A stretch of DNA of 64,000 nucleotides from Actinomycetota bacterium (GCA_041917435.1 JAYRXR010000207.1:1-64000), one strand, 5' to 3'; counted from the first letter of the stretch, positions 4,918 to 40,390 are shown. Notes: a model not told the origin generated them from the letters alone. Numbers and translations are program-made.

Positions 4918-7395
4918 ATGAAATCCCTCACTCGCGGCCTGTTGCTGCTTTTTCTCGTCGTCAGTTGCGCCGCCGCCGTCACGGTCCGGTTCAGAACCTC
5001 GGACACCAGCGTTTCGGCGGACACCAATTCAAAACAGAATCCCGGAGAACTGCTCTGCTTCACCGACAAGGGCGAGGCCAGGGGCGTCTGCCCGCTCAAG
5101 CATACCGACGTGAAGGCCGACATCACCGGCTTTCTCTCGCGCGTGACCGTCACGCAGGAATTCGAAAACCCTTTTAAAGAAGCCGTCGAAGCCGTCTATA
5201 CGTTTCCCCTTCCGCAAAACGCCGCCGTGGACGACATGACCATGACCATCGGCGACCGGACCATCCGCGGCCTCATCAAACGCCGCGAGGAAGCGAAGGA
5301 AATCTACGAAGCGGCCAAACAGGCCGGAAAAACCGCGTCGCTGCTCGATCAGGAGCGCCCGAACATCTTTACCCAGTCAGTCGCCAACCTGACGCCGGGC
5401 GCGAAGGTCACCATCACCATCAGTTATGTCGAAACCCTGAAATATGAGGCGGGGACATACGAATTCGTCTTTCCGATGGTCGTCGGACCGCGCTACATCC
5501 CCGGTCAGCCGACCGGGAAGCAGGCGGGCGGGACCGCTCCCGACACGACACAGGTTCCGGATGCCTCGCGCGTCACGCCCCCGGTCACTCCGGCGGGCAC
5601 GCGCGCGGGCCACGACATTTCGCTCACCGTCAATCTCGACGCGGGCGTTCCCATCACCAACTTCACGAGCGTCAATCATAAAACCGAAGCCGACCGCTTC
5701 ACCGCGAACCGGGCGCGCATCACGCTCCAGTCGGCGAATGAAATTCCGAATCGGGATTTCGTCCTCAAGTACGACGTGGCCGGCAAGAAAATCGAAGACG
5801 GCCTGTTCGTTCACCGGAGCAACAAGGGCGGTTACTTCACGCTCATGCTGCAACCGCCCGACCGCGTGATGCCGACCGACGTGACGCCCAAGGAACTCGT
5901 CTTCGTCATCGACACGTCCGGCTCGATGATGGGCTTCCCGCTCGACAAGGCGAAGGAATGCATGAAGCTCGCGATGGACAACCTCTATGACTACGACACG
6001 TTCAACCTGATAACCTTTTCGGGCGACACGCACCTGCTGTTCCCCGGCCCGGTTCAGGCCACGCGTGAAAACCTTGCCAAAGCGCAGGCGTTTCTCGACG
6101 GCCAGCGCGGCGGCGGCGGAACTGAGATGATGACGGCCATTCGGGCCGCGCTCGAACCTTCGGATAAGCAGGACCACGTCCGCATCGTCTGCTTCATGAC
6201 CGACGGCTATGTCGGGAACGACTTTGAAATCATCGGCGAAATTCAAAAACACCCGAACGCCCGCGTCTTCTCCTTCGGCGTCGGCAATTCCGTGAACCGT
6301 TTCCTGCTCGACGGCATGGCTCGCGAAGGACGCGGCGAAGTCGAATACCTTTCACTGAATGAAGACGGCTCGGCGGCGGCCAAGCGCCTGCACGAACGCA
6401 TCCGCAACCCGCTCCTGACCGACATTTCGCTCGATTTCGGCAATCTGCCGGTGACCGACGTCTATCCGAAACGCATCAACGACCTCTTTTCCGCCAAGCC
6501 GGTTTTCGTCACCGGCCGCTTCACCGGCCCCGGAAAGGGCGCGATCAAGCTGCGCGGAAAAATGATGGGCAAACCCTACGAACGCGAAATCCCGCTGACA
6601 TTGCCGGAGAACGAACCAAACCACGATGTTCTTTCGGGACTGTGGGCGCGCAACCGCATCGACGACCTGATGGCGCAGGATTTGCCCGGTCTCCAGCGCG
6701 GAACGATGAAGCCCGAAATTCAGGAAGTCATTACCCAGATCGGCCTTGAATACCGGCTGATGACGCAGTTCACGTCGTTCGTGGCGGTCGAGGAAACGGT
6801 CGTCAACGAAGGCGGCCAGCAGCGGCGGATTCAGGTCCCGGTTGAACTGCCCGAAGGCGTCAGCCGCGCCGGAATCGAAGGCGTGACGGATGAAGAAGCC
6901 GACGGGCTGCCGGCCAATCGTTACTACAGTGGCGGGGGAATCGCTGCGGGCCGGAAGAGTCAGCCGATGAAGCGCCGCATTGCGCCGAAGTCTCCGCCAA
7001 CGGGGGTTTACCGGGATTCCAGGACCATCAACAACATTCCGACCGCGAAACCAGCCGAGAAAGTGGCGACGCCGGATGTCGATACCAAGCCGGACCCGAA
7101 CACGGTTCGCAGTCCGAAACTTCATCCGACGCTGGCCGCCATCGTCGAACGGCTGCAAAAGAAATCCGCCGCCGTCCCGCCCGAGGAAGCCCGCGTCGTC
7201 AAGGACGGCAAGGTTGAAGTTCAGGTGATGTTGACCGACGGTTCGCCCGCGACCATTGAAAAGCTCAAGGCGCTCGGCGCGGAATTCGTCATCACCCCCA
7301 ACGGCAAGCGCATCGTGGTGATGAAGATCGCCATCGAAAAACTCGATGCCCTGTCGAAGCTGGCGGAAGTGCGCTACGTCACGCCACAGAATTGA
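4918..7395 (+). CDS. secreted VIT-domain plus von Willebrand factor A-domain protein
   Basis: GGAGGT RBS 4 nt upstream, signal peptide (LLLLFLVVSCAAA) and an N-terminal VIT region. The vWA MIDAS motif DTSGSM sits at ~5920 and a long C-terminal extension follows. Confidence 0.75.
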   Translation: MKSLTRGLLLLFLVVSCAAAVTVRFRTSDTSVSADTNSKQNPGELLCFTDKGEARGVCPLKHTDVKADITGFLSRVTVTQEFENPFKEAVEAVYTFPLPQNAAVDDMTMTIGDRTIRGLIKRREEAKEIYEAAKQAGKTASLLDQERPNIFTQSVANLTPGAKVTITISYVETLKYEAGTYEFVFPMVVGPRYIPGQPTGKQAGGTAPDTTQVPDASRVTPPVTPAGTRAGHDISLTVNLDAGVPITNFTSVNHKTEADRFTANRARITLQSANEIPNRDFVLKYDVAGKKIEDGLFVHRSNKGGYFTLMLQPPDRVMPTDVTPKELVFVIDTSGSMMGFPLDKAKECMKLAMDNLYDYDTFNLITFSGDTHLLFPGPVQATRENLAKAQAFLDGQRGGGGTEMMTAIRAALEPSDKQDHVRIVCFMTDGYVGNDFEIIGEIQKHPNARVFSFGVGNSVNRFLLDGMAREGRGEVEYLSLNEDGSAAAKRLHERIRNPLLTDISLDFGNLPVTDVYPKRINDLFSAKPVFVTGRFTGPGKGAIKLRGKMMGKPYEREIPLTLPENEPNHDVLSGLWARNRIDDLMAQDLPGLQRGTMKPEIQEVITQIGLEYRLMTQFTSFVAVEETVVNEGGQQRRIQVPVELPEGVSRAGIEGVTDEEADGLPANRYYSGGGIAAGRKSQPMKRRIAPKSPPTGVYRDSRTINNIPTAKPAEKVATPDVDTKPDPNTVRSPKLHPTLAAIVERLQKKSAAVPPEEARVVKDGKVEVQVMLTDGSPATIEKLKALGAEFVITPNGKRIVVMKIAIEKLDALSKLAEVRYVTPQN

Positions 7396-7474
7396 AGATT
7401 GAAGATTGAAGATTTTCGATTGAGGAAAGGGCGGACCGATTCTGGCCCCAATCTCAAATCGAAAATCTTCAATC
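7396..7474. repeat. STR-armed hairpin (caatcgaaaatcttc family); likely bidirectional terminator
   Basis: Arm gattgaagattgaagattttcgattgag (7396-7425) pairs with ctcaaatcgaaaatcttcaatc (7450-7474) across a ~24-nt loop. The module tcttcaatcaaaaatcaccgcattgtcgcYggc is repeated at 7466-7498 and 7568-7600. The element lies between convergent gene ends. Confidence 0.5.
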
Positions 7475-7582
7475 AAAAATCACCGCATTGTCGCTGGCCC
7501 CCTGAAGATCGAAGGCTTTTAAATTGAACTTGTGACGGTCACCCCCTTCTTCAATCGAAAATCTTCAATCTTCAATCAAAAA

Positions 7583-10500
7583 TCACCGCATTGTCGCCGG
7601 CTCCCGGACGTCTTCCACCGGGGCCGGCGTTTTTTCGTTCTCCGCCAGCGGAAGCCGAATCCGGAAACAGCTTCCCTTGCCCGGTCCGTCCGATTCGGCG
7701 CGAATCGTGCCGCCGTGGGCCTCGACATAACTCTTCGCGATGGAAAGGCCCAGCCCGGAACCGCGCGTCGCGAATTCGAATTTCCCCGACTTGTGCCTGG
7801 TCGTGTCGGCGGTGGTGTAGAACCGGTCGAAAATCCGGTCGAGTTCGCCGGATTCGATGCCGATTCCCTCATCCCGGACGGTCAGATTGATGAGCGTTCC
7901 CTCACGGATGAGTCCGATTTCGACCCTGCCGCCGTCGGGCGTGAACTTGACCGCGTTCTGAACGATATTTCCCAATACCAGCCTCAATTTTTCGCGGTCG
8001 GCGTCGATCAGGAACGGTTCGTCGCACTCGACCTCGACGGCGAGCTTGCGCCGTTCGGCATGGGGTTCGAAATCCGCCACGGTCTCGCGCACGACCTCGC
8101 CCAAATCGAACCGCGACCGGTTCAACGTCACCTCCCGCCGGTCAAAGCGCAGGATTTCGACCAGGTCGTTGAACGTTCCCGTCAGACGGTCCACCACGGA
8201 AAGGCAGGTTTCGAGCGACCGCTGCTGCGGCTCGGTCAGCGGGCCGAACAGCTTCTCCAGCATCGCTTCGCTGTGCCCGCGCAGAACCGTGAGCGGCGTC
8301 CGCATCTCATGCGATGCCACCGAGATGAAATTGGTCTTCATCCGGTCGAGTTCCTGAAGCCGGCTCGTGACCTCCTGCTCCTTGCGATACAGGGTTTCAA
8401 GTTCCTTCATCGACTCGACCACGAGCAGGTTTTTCGCTTCGAGTTCGCCGTAAAGATGGGCGTTTTCAATCGCGACCGCCGCCTGATGGGCAAGGGCTTC
8501 GAGGATTTCACGGTCGGCGTCGGTGAACTTCTCCGCCGCGGGCTTGCGCCGGACATCCAGCACACCGACCACGTCCCCGGCGCGCGACCGGATGGGTACG
8601 TCGATCATGCCGTAGGCGTAACGCGAGGCGAACGGCTCGGGAAACGCCAGAATGTCCCCGACCGCCGGATCGTTGGCGATGATGGCCAGACCGGTTTCCG
8701 CCACCGTCCCGACAATTCCCTTTCCGAGCGGAAGCGAAACGCGACATTCCTTCCAGCGGCCCTCCGACCACAAATGCCGAAAGGTAACCGCATCCCCCGC
8801 AACGATCCCGATTCCCCCCGGTTCGCCGCCGACGAGGTTCGCGCTTTCCTCCGCGATGGTTTCAAGCACCGTTTCGAGATCGAGGCCGGAATTGATGACC
8901 CGCGTACTGTGGAGGAGTCGCCGAAGATAACGGATGCGTTCCTCCTGCCGTTTTCTGACCGTCCGGTAACGCCAGGCGAACAGTCCGTAAATCCCGCCGA
9001 TAATCGCCATCGAGTATAAAAAGTAGGCCAGCGGCGTCCGCCACGGCGCGGGCCGTACCGAAAAGGCCAGCACGACCGGTCCCGTCACGTTTCCGGCGTA
9101 ATCGCGTCCCCAGACCTTGAACTGATAGTCGCCGGGGCCGAGGTTGGTGTATTCGCGTTTCCCTTCCCGGCTCCAGTCGGACGGGTCGGGTTCAAAGTTG
9201 ACGAGCTGCGTGCGGTAGCGCGTGTCGCCGCCGCGAAAAAGACTCATCAGGGTGAATTCGAAGGTCAGTGAATTGTGCCGATGGTCGAGGACCTCGCCCG
9301 TTCGCAAAACGGGCCGGTCCGGGCCGAGCGGGGCAAACGCGCTGATCTGGAGCGGCTTCGGGATCCGGTCGAGGATTTCACCAGCCAGATCGAGTTGCGC
9401 CGCGCCGGCGGAAGTACCCACCCAGAGTCGCCCCGCGCCGTCGGCCAGCCCGCTTCCCGTCAGACATTCGTTGCTCGGCAGACCGTCCTCGGTCGTGAAT
9501 ACATAGGCATCGCCCACCGGGTCCCGTTTCGGCCCGCCGCCGTAATCGGGCGTCAAACGGGCAATTCCCTTGTTTGTACAGAAATACAGCCGCTGCCTCG
9601 AATCCGCGAGGATGCGGTAAACCGTGTTGTTGGGCAGGCCCGGCGCGGTGGCTTCATTCAGCCCGTGCCAGACATCATCCGCCCGGTCGAGATTGCGCCA
9701 CGCCGCCCCGGCCCCGTTGGTGCCGACCCACAGGATCGTATCGCCGTCCGGCGACCGCGTGGAAGTCAGGCTCAACACCACGTTGTTCGGCAAACCGGTC
9801 GTCATGTCGAAAACCGACCACCGGTGACCGTCAAAGCGGGCGAGGCCCCCGCCGTAGGTTCCGGCCCAGATGTCGCGGCGTCCGTCGCGGGCCACGGTTT
9901 CAAGCAGACAGTTGACCCCGTTGTTCGGCAGATCGCCCTGCTGCTTGTTGTACGTTTTCCAGACACCGTCCTCCAGACGGCTCAATCCGTTGTAGGTCCC
10001 GAACCACATGACGGACTTCCCGGCGGCGGTCCGGGTTTCGAGAATGCTCCGGATTTCAGGATGAACCAGTCCGTCGGCGGTTTTGAAAACCTCCATTTTT
10101 TCCCGCGCGAAGCGAACTCCTCCGCCCTGCGTGCCGATCCACAGAACCGGCGTTCCGTCCGGCTCATGAGTTTCATAAAGAACGCTGATCCGGTCGTCCG
10201 GCAGTCCGTTTTTCCCATGGTAACGTCGCCATCCGCCCGGCCCCGACCGAAACAGCCCGTCCGTCGCCGTCCCGAACCAGAATTCCGATCCCCCGGCCGA
10301 GACGGAACGGATGAACGAATGAACCAGAAACCGCTCGGGGCGCATCTCCGGGGGCGGTTCGAACATGCGCCAGGACCGCAGGGGATAAAACCCCAGCCCG
10401 TTGCCGTTCGAACCGATCCAGAGCGCCTCGAAACCATCGGCGGTCGTGATTTTGAGAATTGAATTGATGTCCCCCCCGGCCAGCCCGCGCCGGTTCGCGA

Positions 10501-13067: not shown

Positions 13068-13987
13068 AAAGCGCGATCCTCCGCCGCGGATTCGTTCGTC
13101 ATCTCAAGAAAAATGTCTTCCAGCGAAGTCCGGGAAAGCGAGAGATGAAAGACGCCGATGCCGCGTTCCACCAGAACGGCGTTGGCCCGGACGGCGTCTT
13201 CCTCCGACGCGCCGGGCAGAACCAGCTGCCCTTCGGCACCGATTTCAACCTGAAACTTTGCCTCTTTCAGACAGTTCAGCGCGGTTTCGGGGTCGGTGAC
13301 GCCGATGGCGACGTGCCGTTTCTGGCGGGCGCCGAGTTCATCGAGCAAGCCCTGAAACAGCAACCGTCCCCGATGAACAATGGCGATGTGGCCGGCGATC
13401 TGCTCGACTTCGCTTAAAAGATGACTTGAAAGAAACACCGTGATGCCGAATTCGTTCGGCAGCCGACGGATGAGGTCGCGCATTTCATGAATGCCCGCCG
13501 GATCGAGTCCGTTGGTCGGTTCATCCAGAATCAGCAGATCGGGCTGATTCAACAGGGCCAGCGCCAGTCCGAGCCGCTGGCGCATGCCGAGGGAATATTC
13601 CCGGACGGGTCGTCCGGCGTCCTTCACCAGCCGGACAATGTCGAGCGCCCGGTCGATGAGGTTTCGTTCCGCGCCGAGCAGGCGGCGGGTGACTTCGAGA
13701 TTTTCGCGCCCGGTCAGATGCGGGTAGAGCGAAGGGCTTTCGACCAGCGCGCCGACTCGCCGCATCAGCGCCAGTCGTTGTTCAAAAAGGTTTTCGCCGA
13801 ACAATTTCACCGCGCCGCCGTCGGGCCGAATCAGCCCGAGCAGCATGCGGATGGTCGTGGTTTTTCCCGCGCCGTTCGGTCCGAGAAAGCCGAAAACCCC
13901 GGCGGACGGTACGCGCAGGTTGACGGCATCCACGGCCACGCGGTCGGCGAAGCGTTTGGTCAGATCACCGGTTTCAATGGCCAGCAT
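13064..13987 (-). CDS. ABC transporter ATP-binding protein
   Basis: Walker A (GPNGAGKTT), ABC signature (LSLGMRQRL) and Walker B (LILDEPT) motifs are present. Confidence 0.8.
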   Translation of the reverse strand: MLAIETGDLTKRFADRVAVDAVNLRVPSAGVFGFLGPNGAGKTTTIRMLLGLIRPDGGAVKLFGENLFEQRLALMRRVGALVESPSLYPHLTGRENLEVTRRLLGAERNLIDRALDIVRLVKDAGRPVREYSLGMRQRLGLALALLNQPDLLILDEPTNGLDPAGIHEMRDLIRRLPNEFGITVFLSSHLLSEVEQIAGHIAIVHRGRLLFQGLLDELGARQKRHVAIGVTDPETALNCLKEAKFQVEIGAEGQLVLPGASEEDAVRANAVLVERGIGVFHLSLSRTSLEDIFLEMTNESAAEDRAL

Positions 13988-28811: not shown

Positions 28812-29000
28812 CACGTTTCTCCGGAAGGCGTTGGCTTCGCTCGCACCGGTCGTGAAAAACAGGGCGCTCAGGCTGGAAAAAAATTTTCCGACTCCGGAAT
28901 TTCGCTCGGGTAAATTGCCAAACCCGACTCTTTTTGCAATACTCGACGGCAAGTAAATTTCATTACTGGAATGCCATCAGCCTTTTTTCGAGGTGAAGGA

Positions 29001-29330
29001 ATGAGTGTTGCCCCCGAACAAGGGTCTAATTTGAAGCCGCTTCCCCCGGACGCGCCCCTGTCCCGGATTGATCAGGTCGTGGTGCGCGACATCGCCGGAG
29101 AAACGCTGCTCATTCCCATCCGCAGCAACGTGGCCCAACTCGAATCGGTTTTCGTCCTGAACGATACCGGCAAATTCATCTGGGAAAATATCGACGGGAC
29201 CAATTCGGTTCACGGAATCGTAACCCTGATGTGCGACACATTCGAGGTCGCTGACGAGGAAGCGGAAGCCGACGTCGCCGAGTTCGTCGGATTGCTGGCC
29301 TCCGCCGGGCTGGTCACCGCAACAGTCTGA
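29001..29330 (+). CDS. PqqD-family peptide chaperone (RRE)
   Basis: AGGTGAAGGA RBS before ATG 29001. The ~110-aa protein has the PqqD pattern (LNDTGKFIWENIDG...VADEEAE..DVAEFV). Confidence 0.55.
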   Translation: MSVAPEQGSNLKPLPPDAPLSRIDQVVVRDIAGETLLIPIRSNVAQLESVFVLNDTGKFIWENIDGTNSVHGIVTLMCDTFEVADEEAEADVAEFVGLLASAGLVTATV

Positions 29331-29352
29331 TTCCGAAATAGTTTACGCTCCT

Positions 29353-30642
29353 ATGATTCCTCAGATCGGATACAACGAGTTCAGTCAGCGTTTGCATGGG
29401 TCGGTCTTCACCCATCGCGCGCCCCTCGACGTCACGTTCGAGATGACGCGCCGCTGCCCGTTGACCTGTCTGCACTGCTACAACAACCTGCCGATGAACG
29501 ACCCGGCGCGCCGAAACGAACTGACGCTCAACGAATACAAGCGGCTGTTCGATGAATTCGCCGAACTCGGGACCCTGTGGCTCTTGTTCACCGGCGGCGA
29601 GATTTTCGCCCGGCCGGATTTCCTCGACATCTACACCGAAGCCAAAAAACGCGGCTTCCTGATCACCCTGTTCACCAACGGAACGCTGATCAACGAGAAA
29701 ATCGCCGACCATCTGGCCGAATACAAACCGTTCGCGATTGAAATCACACTCTACGGGCACACGCGCGAGACGTACGAAAAGCTGACCCGGATTCCCGGTT
29801 CCTTCGACCGCTGCCATCGGGGCATTCAACTGTTGCTTGAGCGGGGGCTTCCCCTCACGCTGAAGACCGTCGGGACGACCATCACGAAGGACGAAATTTA
29901 TGAAATGCGGGCCTTCGCGGAAAATCTCGGTCTCGATTTCAAGTTCGACAGCATGATGAATCCCCGGATCGACTGCTCGCAGAGTCCGCTCGACGTGCGG
30001 CTGACGCCCGAGGAGGTCGTCGAACTCGATCTGAAGGACGCCCGGCGGATGCCCGAATGGGATCAGCTTTTCAGCCGCTACCGGGCGGCGCTGTCGAACC
30101 CGCTGGTCAGCGAAACAGTGTATTCCTGCGGGGGCGGCATTGCCTCGTGCGCGGTCAGTCCGTACGGCGAGATGACCATCTGCGTCTTGTCGCAGGTTGA
30201 CCGGTTCGACCTGCGAAACGGTCCGGCCCGCGAAGGCTGGGAGCATTTTCTCAGGGAAGTCCGGATGCTCCAGCGGACCCAGCCGGTCAAGTGCAACAGT
30301 TGTGAAATCCGTTCGATGTGTTCGGGATGCGCCGCGATGAGCGAGCTTGAATACGGCGACAAGGAGGTTCCGGTCGATTTTTTCTGCCGAACGAACCACC
30401 TGCGCGCCTATCTGCTCGGTCTGGACTTGAAACCGAACCCCTTGTGCGAATACCGTCCGGGGAGCGAACGTTACGAAGAAATACAAACTTCGGTGGCGGA
30501 ATTGCGTCGTAAGGCTGAAGAATACGGCCACTGGACGCCCCCGACGACGAACGGACGTAGTTTACCGGTTTTTCAAACCCCGCCGTCACCATCCGATGAT
30601 TTCTGCAACGGTTTCAATCGTTATGCCGTTGCCGAAGGATAA
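29353..30642 (+). CDS. radical SAM/SPASM-domain peptide maturase
   Basis: CPLTCLHC (CX3CX2C) and a C-terminal SPASM 7-Cys region (CGGGIASC...C...CNSCEIRSMCSGC) are present. A ~90-aa tail follows the SPASM region. Confidence 0.8.
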   Translation: MIPQIGYNEFSQRLHGSVFTHRAPLDVTFEMTRRCPLTCLHCYNNLPMNDPARRNELTLNEYKRLFDEFAELGTLWLLFTGGEIFARPDFLDIYTEAKKRGFLITLFTNGTLINEKIADHLAEYKPFAIEITLYGHTRETYEKLTRIPGSFDRCHRGIQLLLERGLPLTLKTVGTTITKDEIYEMRAFAENLGLDFKFDSMMNPRIDCSQSPLDVRLTPEEVVELDLKDARRMPEWDQLFSRYRAALSNPLVSETVYSCGGGIASCAVSPYGEMTICVLSQVDRFDLRNGPAREGWEHFLREVRMLQRTQPVKCNSCEIRSMCSGCAAMSELEYGDKEVPVDFFCRTNHLRAYLLGLDLKPNPLCEYRPGSERYEEIQTSVAELRRKAEEYGHWTPPTTNGRSLPVFQTPPSPSDDFCNGFNRYAVAEG

Positions 30643-30704
30643 TCATTCAATTTCGTTTTAGTACCTCTGACGAAATTCACTATCGAATCGAAAGAGAGTT
30701 TGCC

Positions 30705-30902
30705 GTGAACAACCAGAAGAACCACAGCAGCGCCAATTCCGAAACCTCCCAGTCGGTGAAGCGGACCTACCGCAAGCCCCGGATTGAATCGGTTGAAATG
30801 CGTCCGAATGAGGCGTTGCTCGGCGCCTGCAAGACTTCGAGTTCCGCCGGCCCGGCGTCGCCGTCGTGCAGTACCTTGAGCTGCTCCTCGCTCGGCTCGT
30901 AA
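30705..30902 (+). CDS. putative RiPP precursor peptide (Cys/Ser/Thr-rich core)
   Basis: GTG start with an AAAGAGAG RBS 6 nt upstream. The 65-aa protein has a charged leader (KRTYRKPRIESVEMRPNEALLG) and a core ACKTSSSAGPASPSCSTLSCSSLGS. It lies between the maturase and kinase genes. Confidence 0.45.
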   Translation: MNNQKNHSSANSETSQSVKRTYRKPRIESVEMRPNEALLGACKTSSSAGPASPSCSTLSCSSLGS

Positions 30903-30918
30903 CCGCTTGCCGGAAGTG

Positions 30919-31857
30919 ATGCTCATGAACGCAGCGTCGGCGACCGCCGAATCTGAAAACCCTTCGTCCCCGACCCGAACGCTTTCACTCGGCGGTTTGA
31001 CCATTCGCCTGATCGGGTCGGGCGCGTCCGCTCCCCTGATTGAGCCGGTTTCCCGGCGTTTTCTGGTGGATTCGGACGAAAAACCGGCTATCGCGCTCGA
31101 AATCGGCGAGGGCGATCCGGCGGAATTCGAGAGTCTGGCTCGTCAAAAGCCTTTTTTCGATTCCGGCGGGACGTGGAAGCTCTATCGGAAAGACGGAAAG
31201 CTCGTCTACGCCGTCACGGTTCCGATTTTCGGTGATATTCCCTACCGTTTTCTCGAAGTCGCCGACGATTTCTCATCGGGTCGGCTGCTGATCAATCCGA
31301 AGGCCGGAGTTCCCGACCACTGCCTTTTCCCGCTCGCCTTCCCCCTCGACGAACTTCTCATCGCGAATCTGCTGACCCTCCCCGGAAACGAAGGGGTACT
31401 GCTCCATGCCTGCGCGGTGACCGACCCGGACGGAAACGCTTTCGTCTTCGTCGGACAATCCGGGGATGGAAAATCCACCACCGCCCGGCTCTGGGCCGCG
31501 CGCGCGGGGATGACCATTCTGACGGACGAACGGGTCATCATCCGTCGTCACGACGACGGGTTTTATGTGTACGGCACGCCCTGGCACGGCGACCAGCTCG
31601 CCGCCGTGGCCGACCGGGCCAAAATTTCCGGTCTGTTCATTCTCCGCAAGGGTCAGGCCAACGCCGTCACTGAAACCCGGCCCAGCCTTGCGTCCGCGCT
31701 CCTGTTCGCGCGGTGTTTCCCGCCGCTTCACTCTCCGGAAAGTCTTTCCGCGACGGCGGCTCTTCTTGAATCCCTCGTCACCAACGTTTCCTGTCGGGAA
31801 CTTCATTTCCTTCCGGACAACTCCGCCGTGGATTTCGTCCGCGGGCTTTTCGCCTGA
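30919..31857 (+). CDS. HPr kinase C-terminal-domain-like P-loop protein (HprK-related kinase)
   Basis: P-loop GQSGDGKST in an HprK_C-like context (LLHACAV...G.AFVFVG.SG.GKST). Confidence 0.6.
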   Translation: MLMNAASATAESENPSSPTRTLSLGGLTIRLIGSGASAPLIEPVSRRFLVDSDEKPAIALEIGEGDPAEFESLARQKPFFDSGGTWKLYRKDGKLVYAVTVPIFGDIPYRFLEVADDFSSGRLLINPKAGVPDHCLFPLAFPLDELLIANLLTLPGNEGVLLHACAVTDPDGNAFVFVGQSGDGKSTTARLWAARAGMTILTDERVIIRRHDDGFYVYGTPWHGDQLAAVADRAKISGLFILRKGQANAVTETRPSLASALLFARCFPPLHSPESLSATAALLESLVTNVSCRELHFLPDNSAVDFVRGLFA

Positions 31858-31863
31858 CGCGCC

Positions 31864-32283
31864 ATGAAATCGGCGTTCGGCAGTTTCGGGGAAAATCTCG
31901 GCGGTGTTTTTCCGAGGGTCGCCATGGAACTGCTCCGGGAAGGCCGGGCAATCCGTTTTCGGGCGGTTGGATGGAGCATGCACCCGGCCATCGAGGATGG
32001 TGAAACCATTTCGGTTCATCCAATCTCCCCGATGGACCTGAATGTCGGGGATGTCGCCCTTTTCCACATTGAAGACCGGTTGATCGCCCACCGGGTTCTC
32101 CGGTGTCCCTCCCCCGAAAACCCGAATTTTTTGTTGCGGGGGGACGCAATGGCGGAAGGCGAATCCGTAACCGGGGATCAAATTCTCGGAATTGTCCCGG
32201 ACCGGTCACTCGCGCCCCGTCAGGCTGCGGCCAAACGGCTGGTTCATCGGCTCAAACGACGGCTTTTCCCCAAAAAACCGTAA
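31864..32283 (+). CDS. S24/S26 (LexA/signal-peptidase fold) peptidase
   Basis: GWSMHPAIEDGETISV matches the G-SM-P-DGD-V Ser nucleophile region. The ORF is 139 aa. Confidence 0.5.
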   Translation: MKSAFGSFGENLGGVFPRVAMELLREGRAIRFRAVGWSMHPAIEDGETISVHPISPMDLNVGDVALFHIEDRLIAHRVLRCPSPENPNFLLRGDAMAEGESVTGDQILGIVPDRSLAPRQAAAKRLVHRLKRRLFPKKP

Positions 32284-32309
32284 AAATCGGCCCTGCCCGA
32301 TCCGGCGAA

Positions 32310-33500
32310 TTACTTCCGGACAATCGCGCACCCAAGCGCCGGGCGGCAGCCATCCGTGATGGTTTGGCCAGCCAGTACGGCGTCGAGCGCAAGCTGGAGC
32401 GACCGGTGCGTCACCCGATCCGCGTGGTACGTGTTGTCGTCAATCCTTCCGTGATAACGAAGAAATCCTTTTGAATCAATAAGGTATGACTCCGTCATAC
32501 ACATCGAGTTGAGTGTGTCGGCAACCGCGTGCCCGGTATCCACCGCAATCGGGAAATTGAAGGGCCGCGCCTGCTGTCGATTCCGGATTTCCTGGGGGGG
32601 TTCGTTGGCGTTCGGATTGAAACCGATGAAAACGACGCCCTTTTCACCATAGATTTTGGCCAGATCGTTTAACCGCGCCCGGTACGCCTCGACGCAGGGA
32701 CAACGCGTGCCGACCGTCACCAGAACGACCGGTTTCCCTTTGTAATCCGAGAGTTTATGAACTTTCCCGTCCAGGTCGGTCAGGGAAAGGGCCGGCGCGG
32801 GTTCGTTCAACCCGACCGCCGCTTCGTCGGCGGATTGCGCGTGGCCGGCGTGTTCGAAATCGTCGCCGACCGTTCTCCCGCTGAGCAGATCGAAACCGAA
32901 CGCCCCCGCGCCGAAAATCGAGCTGACGAACAATCCGAGAATACAACCGGCCACGGCGGCGGTCCGGACGGTTTTCGGACCGAAAACGGCCGGGAACGCC
33001 TGCTGGGCGGTCAGAATCGGCAGCCCGCCGAAGCCGAAACAGGCCATGGCAATCGCGCCCTGCTTCACTTCCCACGTCGTGAACGCCAGAACGAAAACCG
33101 CCAGAACCAGAATATTCGGGTGAAGTATCGAAAACGCCCCGCGCAGGAACAAACCGCCGGCACTCTCGGCGTTCAGCAGGATTCCCGTCAGTTTCTTCGA
33201 CCATTCAGGCTCGAACGTATCGGCCTTGGAACGAAAAAGCCTGACCGGGAGCGCAATCGCGGCAAACGCCACGACCACGCAGGGGATAAAGAAAACGTAC
33301 CTTCCCCAGCCGATGAGATAGGCGGCTTCGATAAACCAGAGACCGAGTTGACCGGCAAACGCGCCGAGCGCGGCCAGTCCGGCGACGCGTCCGAGACCGA
33401 ACGTCATCAGTTTGGAGGGATCGAACCGGTCCAGCCGGGCCGTCCGCATGCGTAACCGTTCGATGATGCCGAGCAGAAAGGCGGCAATCAGAAAAACCAT
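32310..33500 (-). CDS. MauE/DoxX-type membrane domain fused to thioredoxin-like (TlpA/redoxin) domain
   Basis: The N-terminal ~200 aa is polytopic membrane. The C-terminus has a thioredoxin fold with the motif TRCPCV. Confidence 0.6.
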   Translation of the reverse strand: MVFLIAAFLLGIIERLRMRTARLDRFDPSKLMTFGLGRVAGLAALGAFAGQLGLWFIEAAYLIGWGRYVFFIPCVVVAFAAIALPVRLFRSKADTFEPEWSKKLTGILLNAESAGGLFLRGAFSILHPNILVLAVFVLAFTTWEVKQGAIAMACFGFGGLPILTAQQAFPAVFGPKTVRTAAVAGCILGLFVSSIFGAGAFGFDLLSGRTVGDDFEHAGHAQSADEAAVGLNEPAPALSLTDLDGKVHKLSDYKGKPVVLVTVGTRCPCVEAYRARLNDLAKIYGEKGVVFIGFNPNANEPPQEIRNRQQARPFNFPIAVDTGHAVADTLNSMCMTESYLIDSKGFLRYHGRIDDNTYHADRVTHRSLQLALDAVLAGQTITDGCRPALGCAIVRK

Positions 33501-40049: not shown

Positions 40050-40390
40050 GTTTTCGTTTTGAACCCTGATGTCTGGACACTTTTCAAGAACTGCGTGTTT
40101 CGTACGTCTTCATCGGTTTTCGTCCCGTAGGGACGGTTGAAAATAGCCCGCCGTTTTAACGGCGGGAACGCGCAGGGCCACGCCCCAAAGTCCCAAAGGG
40201 ACGACAGATGGAGGCGGATTCTGATTCTCGGCCGTCCCTCCGGGACTCTCAATCTCTTGCCACGCTTGTCCCACCGTTAAAACGGTGGGCTATTTTCGAC
40301 CGTCCCTTCGGGACGAAGACAATTTCGACCTTTATTTGCGGGATATTTTTGAAAAGTGTCCCGACTTCAGTTTTGAACCTTAAAAAGCCG
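40050..40390. repeat. composite inverted-repeat element (MITE-like or structured RNA) with four GTCCC-N3-GGGAC palindromes
   Basis: A ~50-bp module (40108-40160) recurs inverted at 40263-40318. Palindromes sit at ~40119, 40190, 40233 and 40301. gttttgaacc ends occur at 40057 and 40370. Confidence 0.45.

Follow-up and report, generated by a model that had tools for sequence, protein, structure and literature searches.

What is made by five adjacent genes whose products all carry, in public records, the names 'hypothetical protein' or 'radical SAM protein'? The question is raised by positions 28971-32283 of a 64,000-nucleotide (nt) stretch of DNA from an Actinomycetota bacterium (GCA_041917435.1, JAYRXR010000207.1:1-64000), analysed at its full length and called the window here. 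An initial annotation of the sequence had placed at this site a co-directional cassette for a peptide made on the ribosome and then modified post-translationally (RiPP). The five open reading frames (ORFs) were found at exactly the coordinates claimed, and the assignments to PqqD, radical S-adenosylmethionine (SAM)/SPASM, HprK-like and S24/S26 proteins were upheld by profile searches, Cys motifs and fold. The locus is very probably a RiPP maturation cassette, with the following features (lengths in amino acids, aa).

28971-29330, plus strand: 119-aa ORF, PqqD-family RiPP recognition element (RRE), Pfam PqqD (PF05402)
29353-30642, plus strand: 429-aa radical SAM enzyme with a full SPASM domain, Pfam Radical_SAM and Cys motifs
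30643-30704, plus strand: conserved 62-nt spacer with the purine-rich GAAAGAGAG ahead of a GTG start, from comparison with the related locus L001
30705-30824, plus strand: 40-aa leader of the 65-aa precursor ORF (30705-30902), with YxxP motif and L-G junction, from family conservation
30825-30902, plus strand: precursor core, residues 41-65 (ACKTSSSAGPASPSCSTLSCSSLGS), and stop codon, from the family profile and codon comparison with L001
30907-31857, plus strand: 316-aa ScmC-like P-loop kinase of the phosphoenolpyruvate carboxykinase (PEPCK)/HPr-kinase fold (Walker A G183-QSGDGKS-T191, D207-E-R209, G223-TPWHG228)
31864-32283, plus strand: 139-aa serine peptidase of the soluble Sec11 type (S26B-like) that may act on the leader (GWSMHP with S38, H76-R77, G93-D94)

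The gaps between the ORFs are 22, 62, 4 and 6 nt, in this order. The 316-aa ORF starts with TTG; if the kinase-like gene begins at an in-frame ATG (30919 or 30925), the third gap is 16-22 nt instead of 4. The true start of the PqqD gene is probably ATG 29001, because GGTGAAGGA precedes this codon and the resulting 109-aa protein agrees with the L001 gene call; the 119-aa ORF would then begin with 10 codons that probably remain untranslated.

Conservation of the cassette and its precursor peptide

The order PqqD, radical SAM, small ORF, ScmC-like, S24 was found in L001 and L002, in a Chloracidobacterium metagenome-assembled genome (MAG; L003) and in a 5.9-Mb genome (L004), whose kinase-like proteins are 86, 49 and 38% identical, respectively, to that of the window. 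Scanning one genome per species with a profile of the kinase-like protein yielded 43 loci. A hidden Markov model of four precursors detected a homologue of the small ORF immediately upstream of the gene for the kinase-like protein in the window and in 38 further loci (L001-L004 and 34 of the 43 genome loci); a conserved RiPP-type cassette with a small Cys-rich ORF at this position, as had been proposed initially, is thus what the neighbourhood comparison shows. The hosts belong to Acidobacteriota, Myxococcota, Nitrospirota, Omnitrophota, Planctomycetota, Chloroflexota, Binatia, Fermentibacteria and Aminicenantes, and one is an alphaproteobacterium (a Dongiaceae MAG). As sampling through the kinase biases co-occurrence, seven distinct loci were also sampled through the precursor, six of which contain the full cassette (L048-L050 and L055-L057). 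The neighbours on either side are not conserved past close relatives; therefore, the unit consists of the five genes and optional partners. In L048, different frames hold pieces of the radical SAM gene, probably as a result of assembly or long-read indel errors, and behind the full cassette lie another PqqD gene and NTP_transf_5 and Asn_synthase-family genes (7413-9958); this locus is possibly a hybrid with lasso-like machinery.

Short ORFs are common in this DNA (10 kb contain 78 that are 40 aa or longer), and at 60% G+C the length of the 65-aa ORF alone says nothing. Together with its GTG start and the lack of any Pfam or NCBIfam match, this could suggest that five ORFs are adjacent by chance and that the small one is an artefact of GC-rich non-coding DNA. 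That explanation retains virtually no probability and is refuted by conservation, on the basis of which we judge the ORF real. Synteny extends over about ten phyla. A profile built from 25 members retrieved 863 homologous clusters among 5.8 billion proteins, all nameless and without a Pfam domain. Comparison with L001 gave 16 synonymous and 5 nonsynonymous codon changes over the whole ORF and 9 and 0, respectively, in the core, which is under purifying selection. No other ORF of this precursor pattern is present in the window.

The family signature consists of a YxxP leader, an LG junction and the core x-C-K-[TS]-x4-G-P-x4-C-x4/5-C-x-[TS]-x-G-S(end). The window core matches the pattern in its x4 spacing variant: it contains the invariant C42, C55, C60 and K43, the G-P pair and the C-terminal G64-S65, and it ends in L-G-S. 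Conservation was measured on three samples, namely 38 distinct precursors from the loci, the top 120 database matches and 104 cores used for a per-position profile. Among the 38 locus precursors, YxxP is present in 37, Leu at position -2 of the junction in 36 and Gly at -1 in 26 (the two junction values are uncorrected script counts in which the junction of L031 is mis-anchored). C-K was counted in 36 of them (37 once the L031 mis-anchoring is corrected), all three core Cys in 35 and the penultimate Gly in 33; 37 end in Ser and one in Thr. The same features were found in 119-120 of the top 120 matches, with YxxP, the junction Leu and Gly and the terminal Ser each present in all 120, and the Cys spacing in this sample is near-fixed (C-x12-C-x4/5-C-x5-end). 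In the 104-core profile, C2, K3, G9, C15, C21, G25 and S26 are invariant, P10 is conserved in 94%, and positions 4 and 23, which both follow a Cys at a distance of two residues, are Ser or Thr in 90 and 91%, respectively. There are just three conserved hydroxyl positions across the family and the C-terminal Ser is the strictest of them. General Ser-richness is not a family trait, as the core of L036 contains a single Ser, the terminal one. The earlier idea of a Ser/Thr-rich core serving as kinase target was therefore right about the HprK-like protein, whereas the Ser-richness proved lineage-specific and it is the terminal Ser that is conserved.

The spacer in front of the precursor is identical to that of L001 at 60 of 62 positions, compared with about 88% in the coding DNA around it, and could be a translation or processing signal which sets the stoichiometry of the precursor. 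A regulatory RNA in the spacer was ruled out, since its 8-bp hairpin (AATTTCGT...ACGAAATT) is no more stable than those of shuffled sequences (z = +0.47) and Rfam has no match within the cassette.

The predicted maturation enzymes

The PqqD protein belongs to the RRE family (60.3 bits for Pfam PqqD, whose cutoff is 23.4; E = 2.3e-16), and its gene occupies the equivalent position in L001-L004, L049, L050 and L055-L057. Its top NCBIfam match is lasso_PqqD_Bac (36 bits, under the cutoff of 80). This sub-threshold match and the YxxPxΦ leader point in the same direction as the link of the kinase to lasso pathways described below.

The radical SAM enzyme was assigned by Pfam Radical_SAM (80.7 bits against a cutoff of 29.5, E = 1.8e-22). 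It contains the CX3CX2C motif (C35/C39/C42) and a 7-Cys SPASM motif (C259...G272-x4-C277, C314-x2-C317-x5-C323-x2-C326, C345), and none of these ten Cys varies among 36 orthologues. NCBIfam models of SPASM maturases align as far as residues ~329-346, with scores far under their cutoffs. The SPASM assignment, predicted from this Cys motif and these alignments, is in accordance with the name given by the Joint Genome Institute (JGI) to one member of the 90% cluster, 'radical SAM protein with 4Fe4S-binding SPASM domain'. The closest sequence relatives in the Protein Data Bank (PDB) are PqqE and SkfB, the similarity being confined to the N-terminal core.

The 316-aa kinase-like protein has no match in Pfam, and its NCBIfam matches (HprK_rel_A, HprK_rel_B and ScmC) are all weak at 19.6-22.2 bits. 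No significant full-length match to HPr(Ser) kinase/phosphorylase (TIGR00679, Hpr_kinase_C) was obtained. A weak precomputed match to Pfam PF27840 ('ScmC') is attached to most of its homologues (hundreds). The AlphaFold2 model, based on a 33-sequence alignment (predicted local distance difference test, pLDDT, 89.9; predicted template modelling score, pTM, 0.87), predicts the PEPCK/HprK fold with high confidence. The top PDB sequence match of the family profile is HprK/P, with 'FVGQSGAGKTT...SDDRV' paired with 'ITGDSGVGKSE...ADDRV'. The Walker A and D-[DE]-R motifs are conserved, and H167, G183, S185, G188, K189, T191, D207, R209 and G223-T-P-W-H-G228 are invariant. The family comprises 2,046 clusters (50% identity) at E <= 1e-30 and 18,232 at 1e-3.

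One weak match of the kinase-like profile scan, L046 from Paenibacillus wenxiniae, is a verified lasso cluster with a cyclase, a lasso PqqD (118 bits) and a B2 protein (92 bits), both over cutoff. The genes are arranged C-A-K-B1-B2-N-D, and the precursor, of 42 aa, has Ser as its last residue. The kinase of this cluster is homologous to the 316-aa family (hhalign probability 97.5%, E = 8.7e-12) and the protein at its 'N' position is homologous to the NTP_transf_5 domain (E = 1.6e-20). The window thus shares with lasso-type peptide kinase systems the homology with retained Walker A and acidic motifs and a precursor ending in Ser (S65). The HprK homologues of lasso clusters phosphorylate the C-terminal Ser's side chain in the linear precursor with little other specificity, and paeninodin and pseudomycoidin are phosphorylated at this residue (PMC6993621; PMC8498205). 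The nucleotidyltransferase-like PsmN adds a hexose onto the phosphate; such proteins are fused to the protease B2 in several lasso clusters (PMC6993621; PMC8498205; PMC5067487).

The 139-aa peptidase is barely over the gathering score of Pfam Peptidase_S24 (24.1 bits against 23.3, E = 3.2e-5) and under the cutoff of NCBIfam sigpep_I_arch (TIGR02228; 29.5 against 51.85 bits). G36, S38, M39, H76, R77, G93 and D94 are invariant or nearly so, and the G-x-S-M-x-P, H-R-V and G-D motifs align to those of SEC11A/C. As a 15-sequence profile favours SEC11C (2.5e-11) and SEC11A (9.7e-11) over bacterial SPase I (4.7e-5) and LexA (~0.006-0.01), the enzyme is assigned by its profile to the Ser-His(-Asp) ER/archaeal type and not to the Ser-Lys or LexA-like types. 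The original S24/S26 assignment was thus correct as to profiles and motifs but not in expecting a LexA-like enzyme, the protein resembling a soluble Sec11-type enzyme. It neither reaches the S26B family cutoff nor has the membrane anchor of that family. Moreover, all five window proteins are free of transmembrane (TM)-like segments, which makes maturation in the cytoplasm probable.

Proposed pathway and alternative explanations

In the pathway that we propose, the PqqD protein would bind the YxxPxΦ motif of the 40-aa leader and present the peptide, as suggested by the conservation of the motif and the role of the PqqD family. The radical SAM/SPASM enzyme would then modify the 25-aa core at its three invariant Cys of fixed spacing. 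The products might most readily be intramolecular thioether cross-links, possibly to the Thr/Ser two residues past the first and third Cys, although we rate the chances of thioether formation slightly below even. The PEPCK/HprK-fold kinase would O-phosphorylate Ser65 while the precursor is still linear, as PadeK and PsmK do in lasso pathways; because of the homology, the retained catalytic motifs and the invariant terminal Ser, we consider phosphorylation of this residue somewhat more probable than the contrary. Finally, the soluble Sec11-like Ser-His peptidase would cut off the leader at L-G | x-C-K (G40/A41), as indicated by the small-residue pattern at -3/-1 and by gene fusions. To our knowledge, a soluble Sec11-type enzyme acting as RiPP leader peptidase would represent a new class of protease for this role. 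Both the chemical steps and their order are deduced from sequence, and the chances that the whole pathway is correct seem to us about even.

The fusions concern optional partners of the cassette. Giant proteins, from 1,100 to >2,500 aa long, end in a Peptidase_C25 domain and either lie behind the S24 domain or, in many cases, include it as their N-terminal part; at least 13 of the 38 kinase-anchored loci and 4 of the 7 precursor-anchored loci have one. They are encoded up- or downstream of the cassette (L003, L005, L008-L010, L012, L014, L016-L019, L021, L023, L026, L032, L036 and L055-L057) and their hosts are Acidobacteriota, some Nitrospirota, Chloroflexota and Myxococcota, and a Dongiaceae MAG. 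The S24-C25 fusions have one strong TM-like segment after the N-terminal S24 domain; a cytoplasmic S24 domain, a single TM segment and a large external part ending in C25 are predicted. NTP_transf_5 is present in 11 of the 38 kinase-anchored and 4 of the 7 precursor-anchored loci. It is fused to the S24-like peptidase in L027 (3892-5970) and L033 (6843-8450); in Omnitrophota and others, S24 is fused to GNAT and/or NTP_transf_5 (L027, L033, L030, L028 and L038). The S24-NTP_transf_5 fusions parallel the B2-nucleotidyltransferase fusions of lasso clusters. No homologue of C25, the giant proteins, NTP_transf_5 or GNAT was found in all 64 kb of the window, which therefore represents the minimal five-gene form.

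Two further arrangements were observed. In L052-L054 (three samples of one lineage; 6181-10183), Peptidase_C25 (846 aa), radical SAM and precursor genes alone are present within 10 kb. In L040 (5307-8999) and L042 (5623-10001), from a Paenibacillus sp. and a Bacillaceae MAG, genes for an ScmC-like protein (263-266 aa), PqqD, a Sec11-type peptidase and, lastly, an ABC exporter come after a small YxxP ORF; a radical SAM enzyme and a lasso cyclase are both absent. L042 additionally encodes an NTP_transf_5-like protein, and the L040 peptidase scores 59 bits, over the NCBIfam cutoff.

Several observations weigh against the proposed pathway. The Pfam SPASM model has no match to the radical SAM enzyme at E <= 0.01, and the scores against the maturase models are all far under their cutoffs (PapB 48.3/340, StsB 83.4/625, AlbA 63.5/850, MftC 107.7/265 bits); therefore, homology does not predict the type of reaction. 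The second acidic residue of the kinase-like protein is Glu, not Asp (D207-E208), and the Ser/Thr of core positions 4 and 23 are alternative kinase targets. The AlphaFold2 model of the peptidase, for which just 4 close relatives were found, is poor (pLDDT 59), and the cleavage site G40/A41 is a guess as apt to be wrong as right. No PqqD, ScmC-like or S24 gene occurs within 10 kb in L052-L054, where the precursor, near-identical to that of the full-cassette locus L007, keeps the terminal G-S; as it is kept without a local kinase, the terminal G-S may be constrained otherwise. The precursor-like ORF next to the ScmC-like gene of L040 ends in ...GGGFWF, with Phe in place of Ser.

Several alternatives have to be weighed. 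It is conceivable, if improbable, that the C-terminus is where the radical SAM enzyme works, in the manner of MftC on the Val-Tyr of MftA, the C-x-[TS]-x-G-S tail being its substrate for oxidative decarboxylation or terminal cross-linking, for example, and that the kinase has another target or is non-catalytic. MftC is the best full-length NCBIfam match (residues 22-329), the last Cys is always five residues from the C-terminus (120 of 120 precursors), and L052-L054 combine G-S and a radical SAM enzyme without a local kinase. However, the MftC score is far under the cutoff, the precursor has no G-V-Y tail, the kinase keeps all its catalytic motifs and is adjacent in 6 of the 7 precursor-anchored loci, and the characterised RiPP kinases of the family all target a C-terminal Ser; the two readings can also coexist. 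Even less probable, in our opinion, is phosphorylation of the internal Thr/Ser at positions 4 and 23 for elimination, which would lead to lanthionine-like rings by the logic of class III/IV, with the radical SAM enzyme responsible for epimerisation or C-C bond formation, for instance. The frequency of Ser/Thr at these positions, both at Cys+2, and the very Ser/Thr-rich window core would fit such a scheme, but no phospho-Ser/Thr lyase or LanC-like cyclase is encoded in the cassette or conserved beside it, the known substrates of the kinase family are C-terminal Ser residues, and the terminal Ser is stricter than the internal positions.

The recurrence of the giant C25 proteins suggests that the peptide, instead of being released as a natural product in its own right, might be their partner, substrate or cross-linked small subunit, with the window copy being reduced. 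QhpC in quinohemoprotein amine dehydrogenase and the cargo of a PorU-like transpeptidase are analogies. The frequency of C25 in both samples of loci, the predicted topology of the fusions and the C25-radical SAM-precursor loci L052-L054 agree with this role. Nevertheless, the window, L001 and L002 have no C25 gene nearby and yet contain an intact cassette under purifying selection, and many other loci also do without C25; we give this possibility as little weight as the elimination scheme. Of these readings, cross-linking of the core combined with phosphorylation of the C-terminal Ser is the one that we prefer.

A wider reading is tentative and, on balance, unlikely. The cassette may represent an overlooked broad RiPP class in which a cross-linking radical SAM/SPASM enzyme and a leader peptidase of the soluble Sec11 type have been combined anew with a tailoring module of the lasso type, composed of the RRE, the HprK-like C-terminal-Ser kinase and, as an option, an NTP_transf_5 phosphoglycosylase. 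The product might then be a 25-mer that is cross-linked three times and phospho(glyco)sylated at its C-terminus; many lineages might pass it to, or process it by, membrane-anchored giants of the gingipain family (C25) whose cytoplasmic N-terminus bears the same peptidase domain.

If the preferred reading is correct, a phosphorylation-tailoring module has moved between RiPP classes. Ribosomal natural products are seldom phosphorylated, and in a 2025 compilation of reported cases the HprK family is represented by lasso peptides only (PMC12639078). The family is large and is found in phyla that have been little explored chemically (Acidobacteriota, Omnitrophota, Binatia). The near-invariant core (C-K, G-P, Cys spacing, G-S) predicts one defined three-dimensional product, which makes the cassette a well-posed target for heterologous expression. 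The recurrent link to the giant C25 proteins hints at a function at the cell surface over that of a classical antibiotic.

Surroundings of the cassette and comparison with known systems

A single further feature was listed upstream of the first ORF:

28915-28943, plus strand: TTGCCA-17-AATACT, resembling a sigma-70 promoter, 28 nt upstream of the first ORF

Since 1.0 such site is expected from shuffled sequences and one was found, this match is weak evidence, suggestive by its position only. The terminator scan of the region yielded consensus matches only within genes. According to Pfam, a hotdog thioesterase is encoded upstream of the cassette and a DsbD_2-AhpC/TSA fusion downstream (32310-33500, minus strand), convergent with the peptidase gene, as in L001. 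In the window, the peptidase and redoxin genes are just 26 nt apart (32284-32309); in L001/L002, two extra genes lie between them, encoding a 600-aa Response_reg-domain protein and a 166-aa protein (L001 7549-9879). AhpC/TSA redoxins are also encoded ~4 kb upstream of the cassette in L049 (1-297) and L050 (837-1400), and an AI-2E_transport permease recurs near L004, L049 and L050; these recurring thiol-redox and AI-2E_transport neighbours could reflect shared ancestry rather than a functional link. A genomic island marked by composition was ruled out by the uniform G+C content (0.587-0.598 in the cassette, like the remaining window) and the flank synteny with L001. Genes for export or immunity are missing from the cassette, and the sole ABC ATPase match in the window (13319-13978) is ~15 kb away and not linked. 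An anti-phage defence reading was rejected after a PADLOC search, the radical SAM core being merely generically similar to pVip. Two copies of the Acido-Lenti-1 RNA motif (RF01687) were detected on opposite strands ~100 nt apart, at 40121-40166 (minus) and 40270-40315 (plus), with 46 and 50 bits, respectively, against a gathering score of 37; their presence would fit a window that derives from Acidobacteriota.

In the literature, we found no publication on a radical SAM-linked HprK-like system, on the cassette or on its precursor, and no curated family; nothing was found on an S26 leader peptidase in such a system, and 'ScmC' gave unrelated acronyms only. The initial statement that HprK-related kinases next to PqqD/radical SAM genes have no characterised product is therefore valid for radical SAM-linked kinases, as far as our search goes, but not for the PqqD-adjacent kinases of lasso clusters, which have characterised products.

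The lasso systems (paeninodin with PadeK, pseudomycoidin with PsmK/PsmN) share with the window a PqqD-type RRE, a leader of the YxxPxL type, a precursor with terminal Ser and a homologous kinase of the HprK family; NTP_transf_5 is optional in relatives of the cassette and sometimes fused to the leader protease. However, the window has neither a lasso cyclase nor a transglutaminase-type B2 protease (tblastn with the L046 cyclase and B2 gave nothing at 1e-3). Its class-defining enzyme is a radical SAM/SPASM protein, its protease is Sec11-like, the core of its family is marked by three invariant Cys and lacks the Asp/Glu pattern of ring formation, and its PqqD protein reaches less than half the cutoff of the lasso model.

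SynChlorMet (ScmC/D/E/F; PF27840) resembles the window in combining a PqqD homologue, one or more radical SAM/SPASM maturases and an ScmC-type P-loop protein. The window proteins fall far short of its models, with 19.6 bits against a cutoff of 125 for ScmC, 30.6 against 100 for ScmD, 80.4 against 400 for ScmE and 61.5 against 400 for ScmF, and the window has one radical SAM gene, whereas SynChlorMet has two. A Sec11-like peptidase and a precursor of a defined family are further parts of the window cassette that may set it apart from SynChlorMet. We found no paper on SynChlorMet, which is apparently known from computational cataloguing alone.

The sactipeptide and ranthipeptide maturases (AlbA, StsB, CteB, PapB) are likewise RRE-dependent radical SAM/SPASM enzymes with a full 7-Cys SPASM motif and act on small Cys-containing cores. 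In the window, by contrast, the RRE is a separate protein and not an N-terminal domain, with CX3CX2C beginning at residue 35; the cutoffs of the PapB, StsB and AlbA models are not reached, and a kinase and a Sec11-like peptidase are added. Mycofactocin differs in both the MftC score and the C-terminal G-V-Y, which the window precursor lacks. HPr kinase/phosphorylase and PEP carboxykinase differ from the window clade, which has its own N-terminal domain and the G-T-P-W-H-G motif, and the presumed substrate of the window kinase is a peptide of the same operon, not HPr or oxaloacetate. Compared with the S26B signal peptidases SEC11A/C and SipW (MEROPS), with which it shares the profile similarity (~1e-11 to 1e-10) and the catalytic motifs, the window enzyme is small, anchorless, sub-cutoff and encoded in a RiPP operon, and its cassette relatives are fused to NTP_transf_5, GNAT or a giant C25.

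The system thus lies outside the lasso class, SynChlorMet and any curated maturase, kinase or signal-peptidase equivalog. By analogy, it would work most like a hybrid of a radical SAM/SPASM pathway of the sactipeptide/ranthipeptide type and a phosphorylation module of the paeninodin type. RRE-dependent radical SAM/SPASM RiPPs are a kind that is known already; the combination and the precursor family are new.

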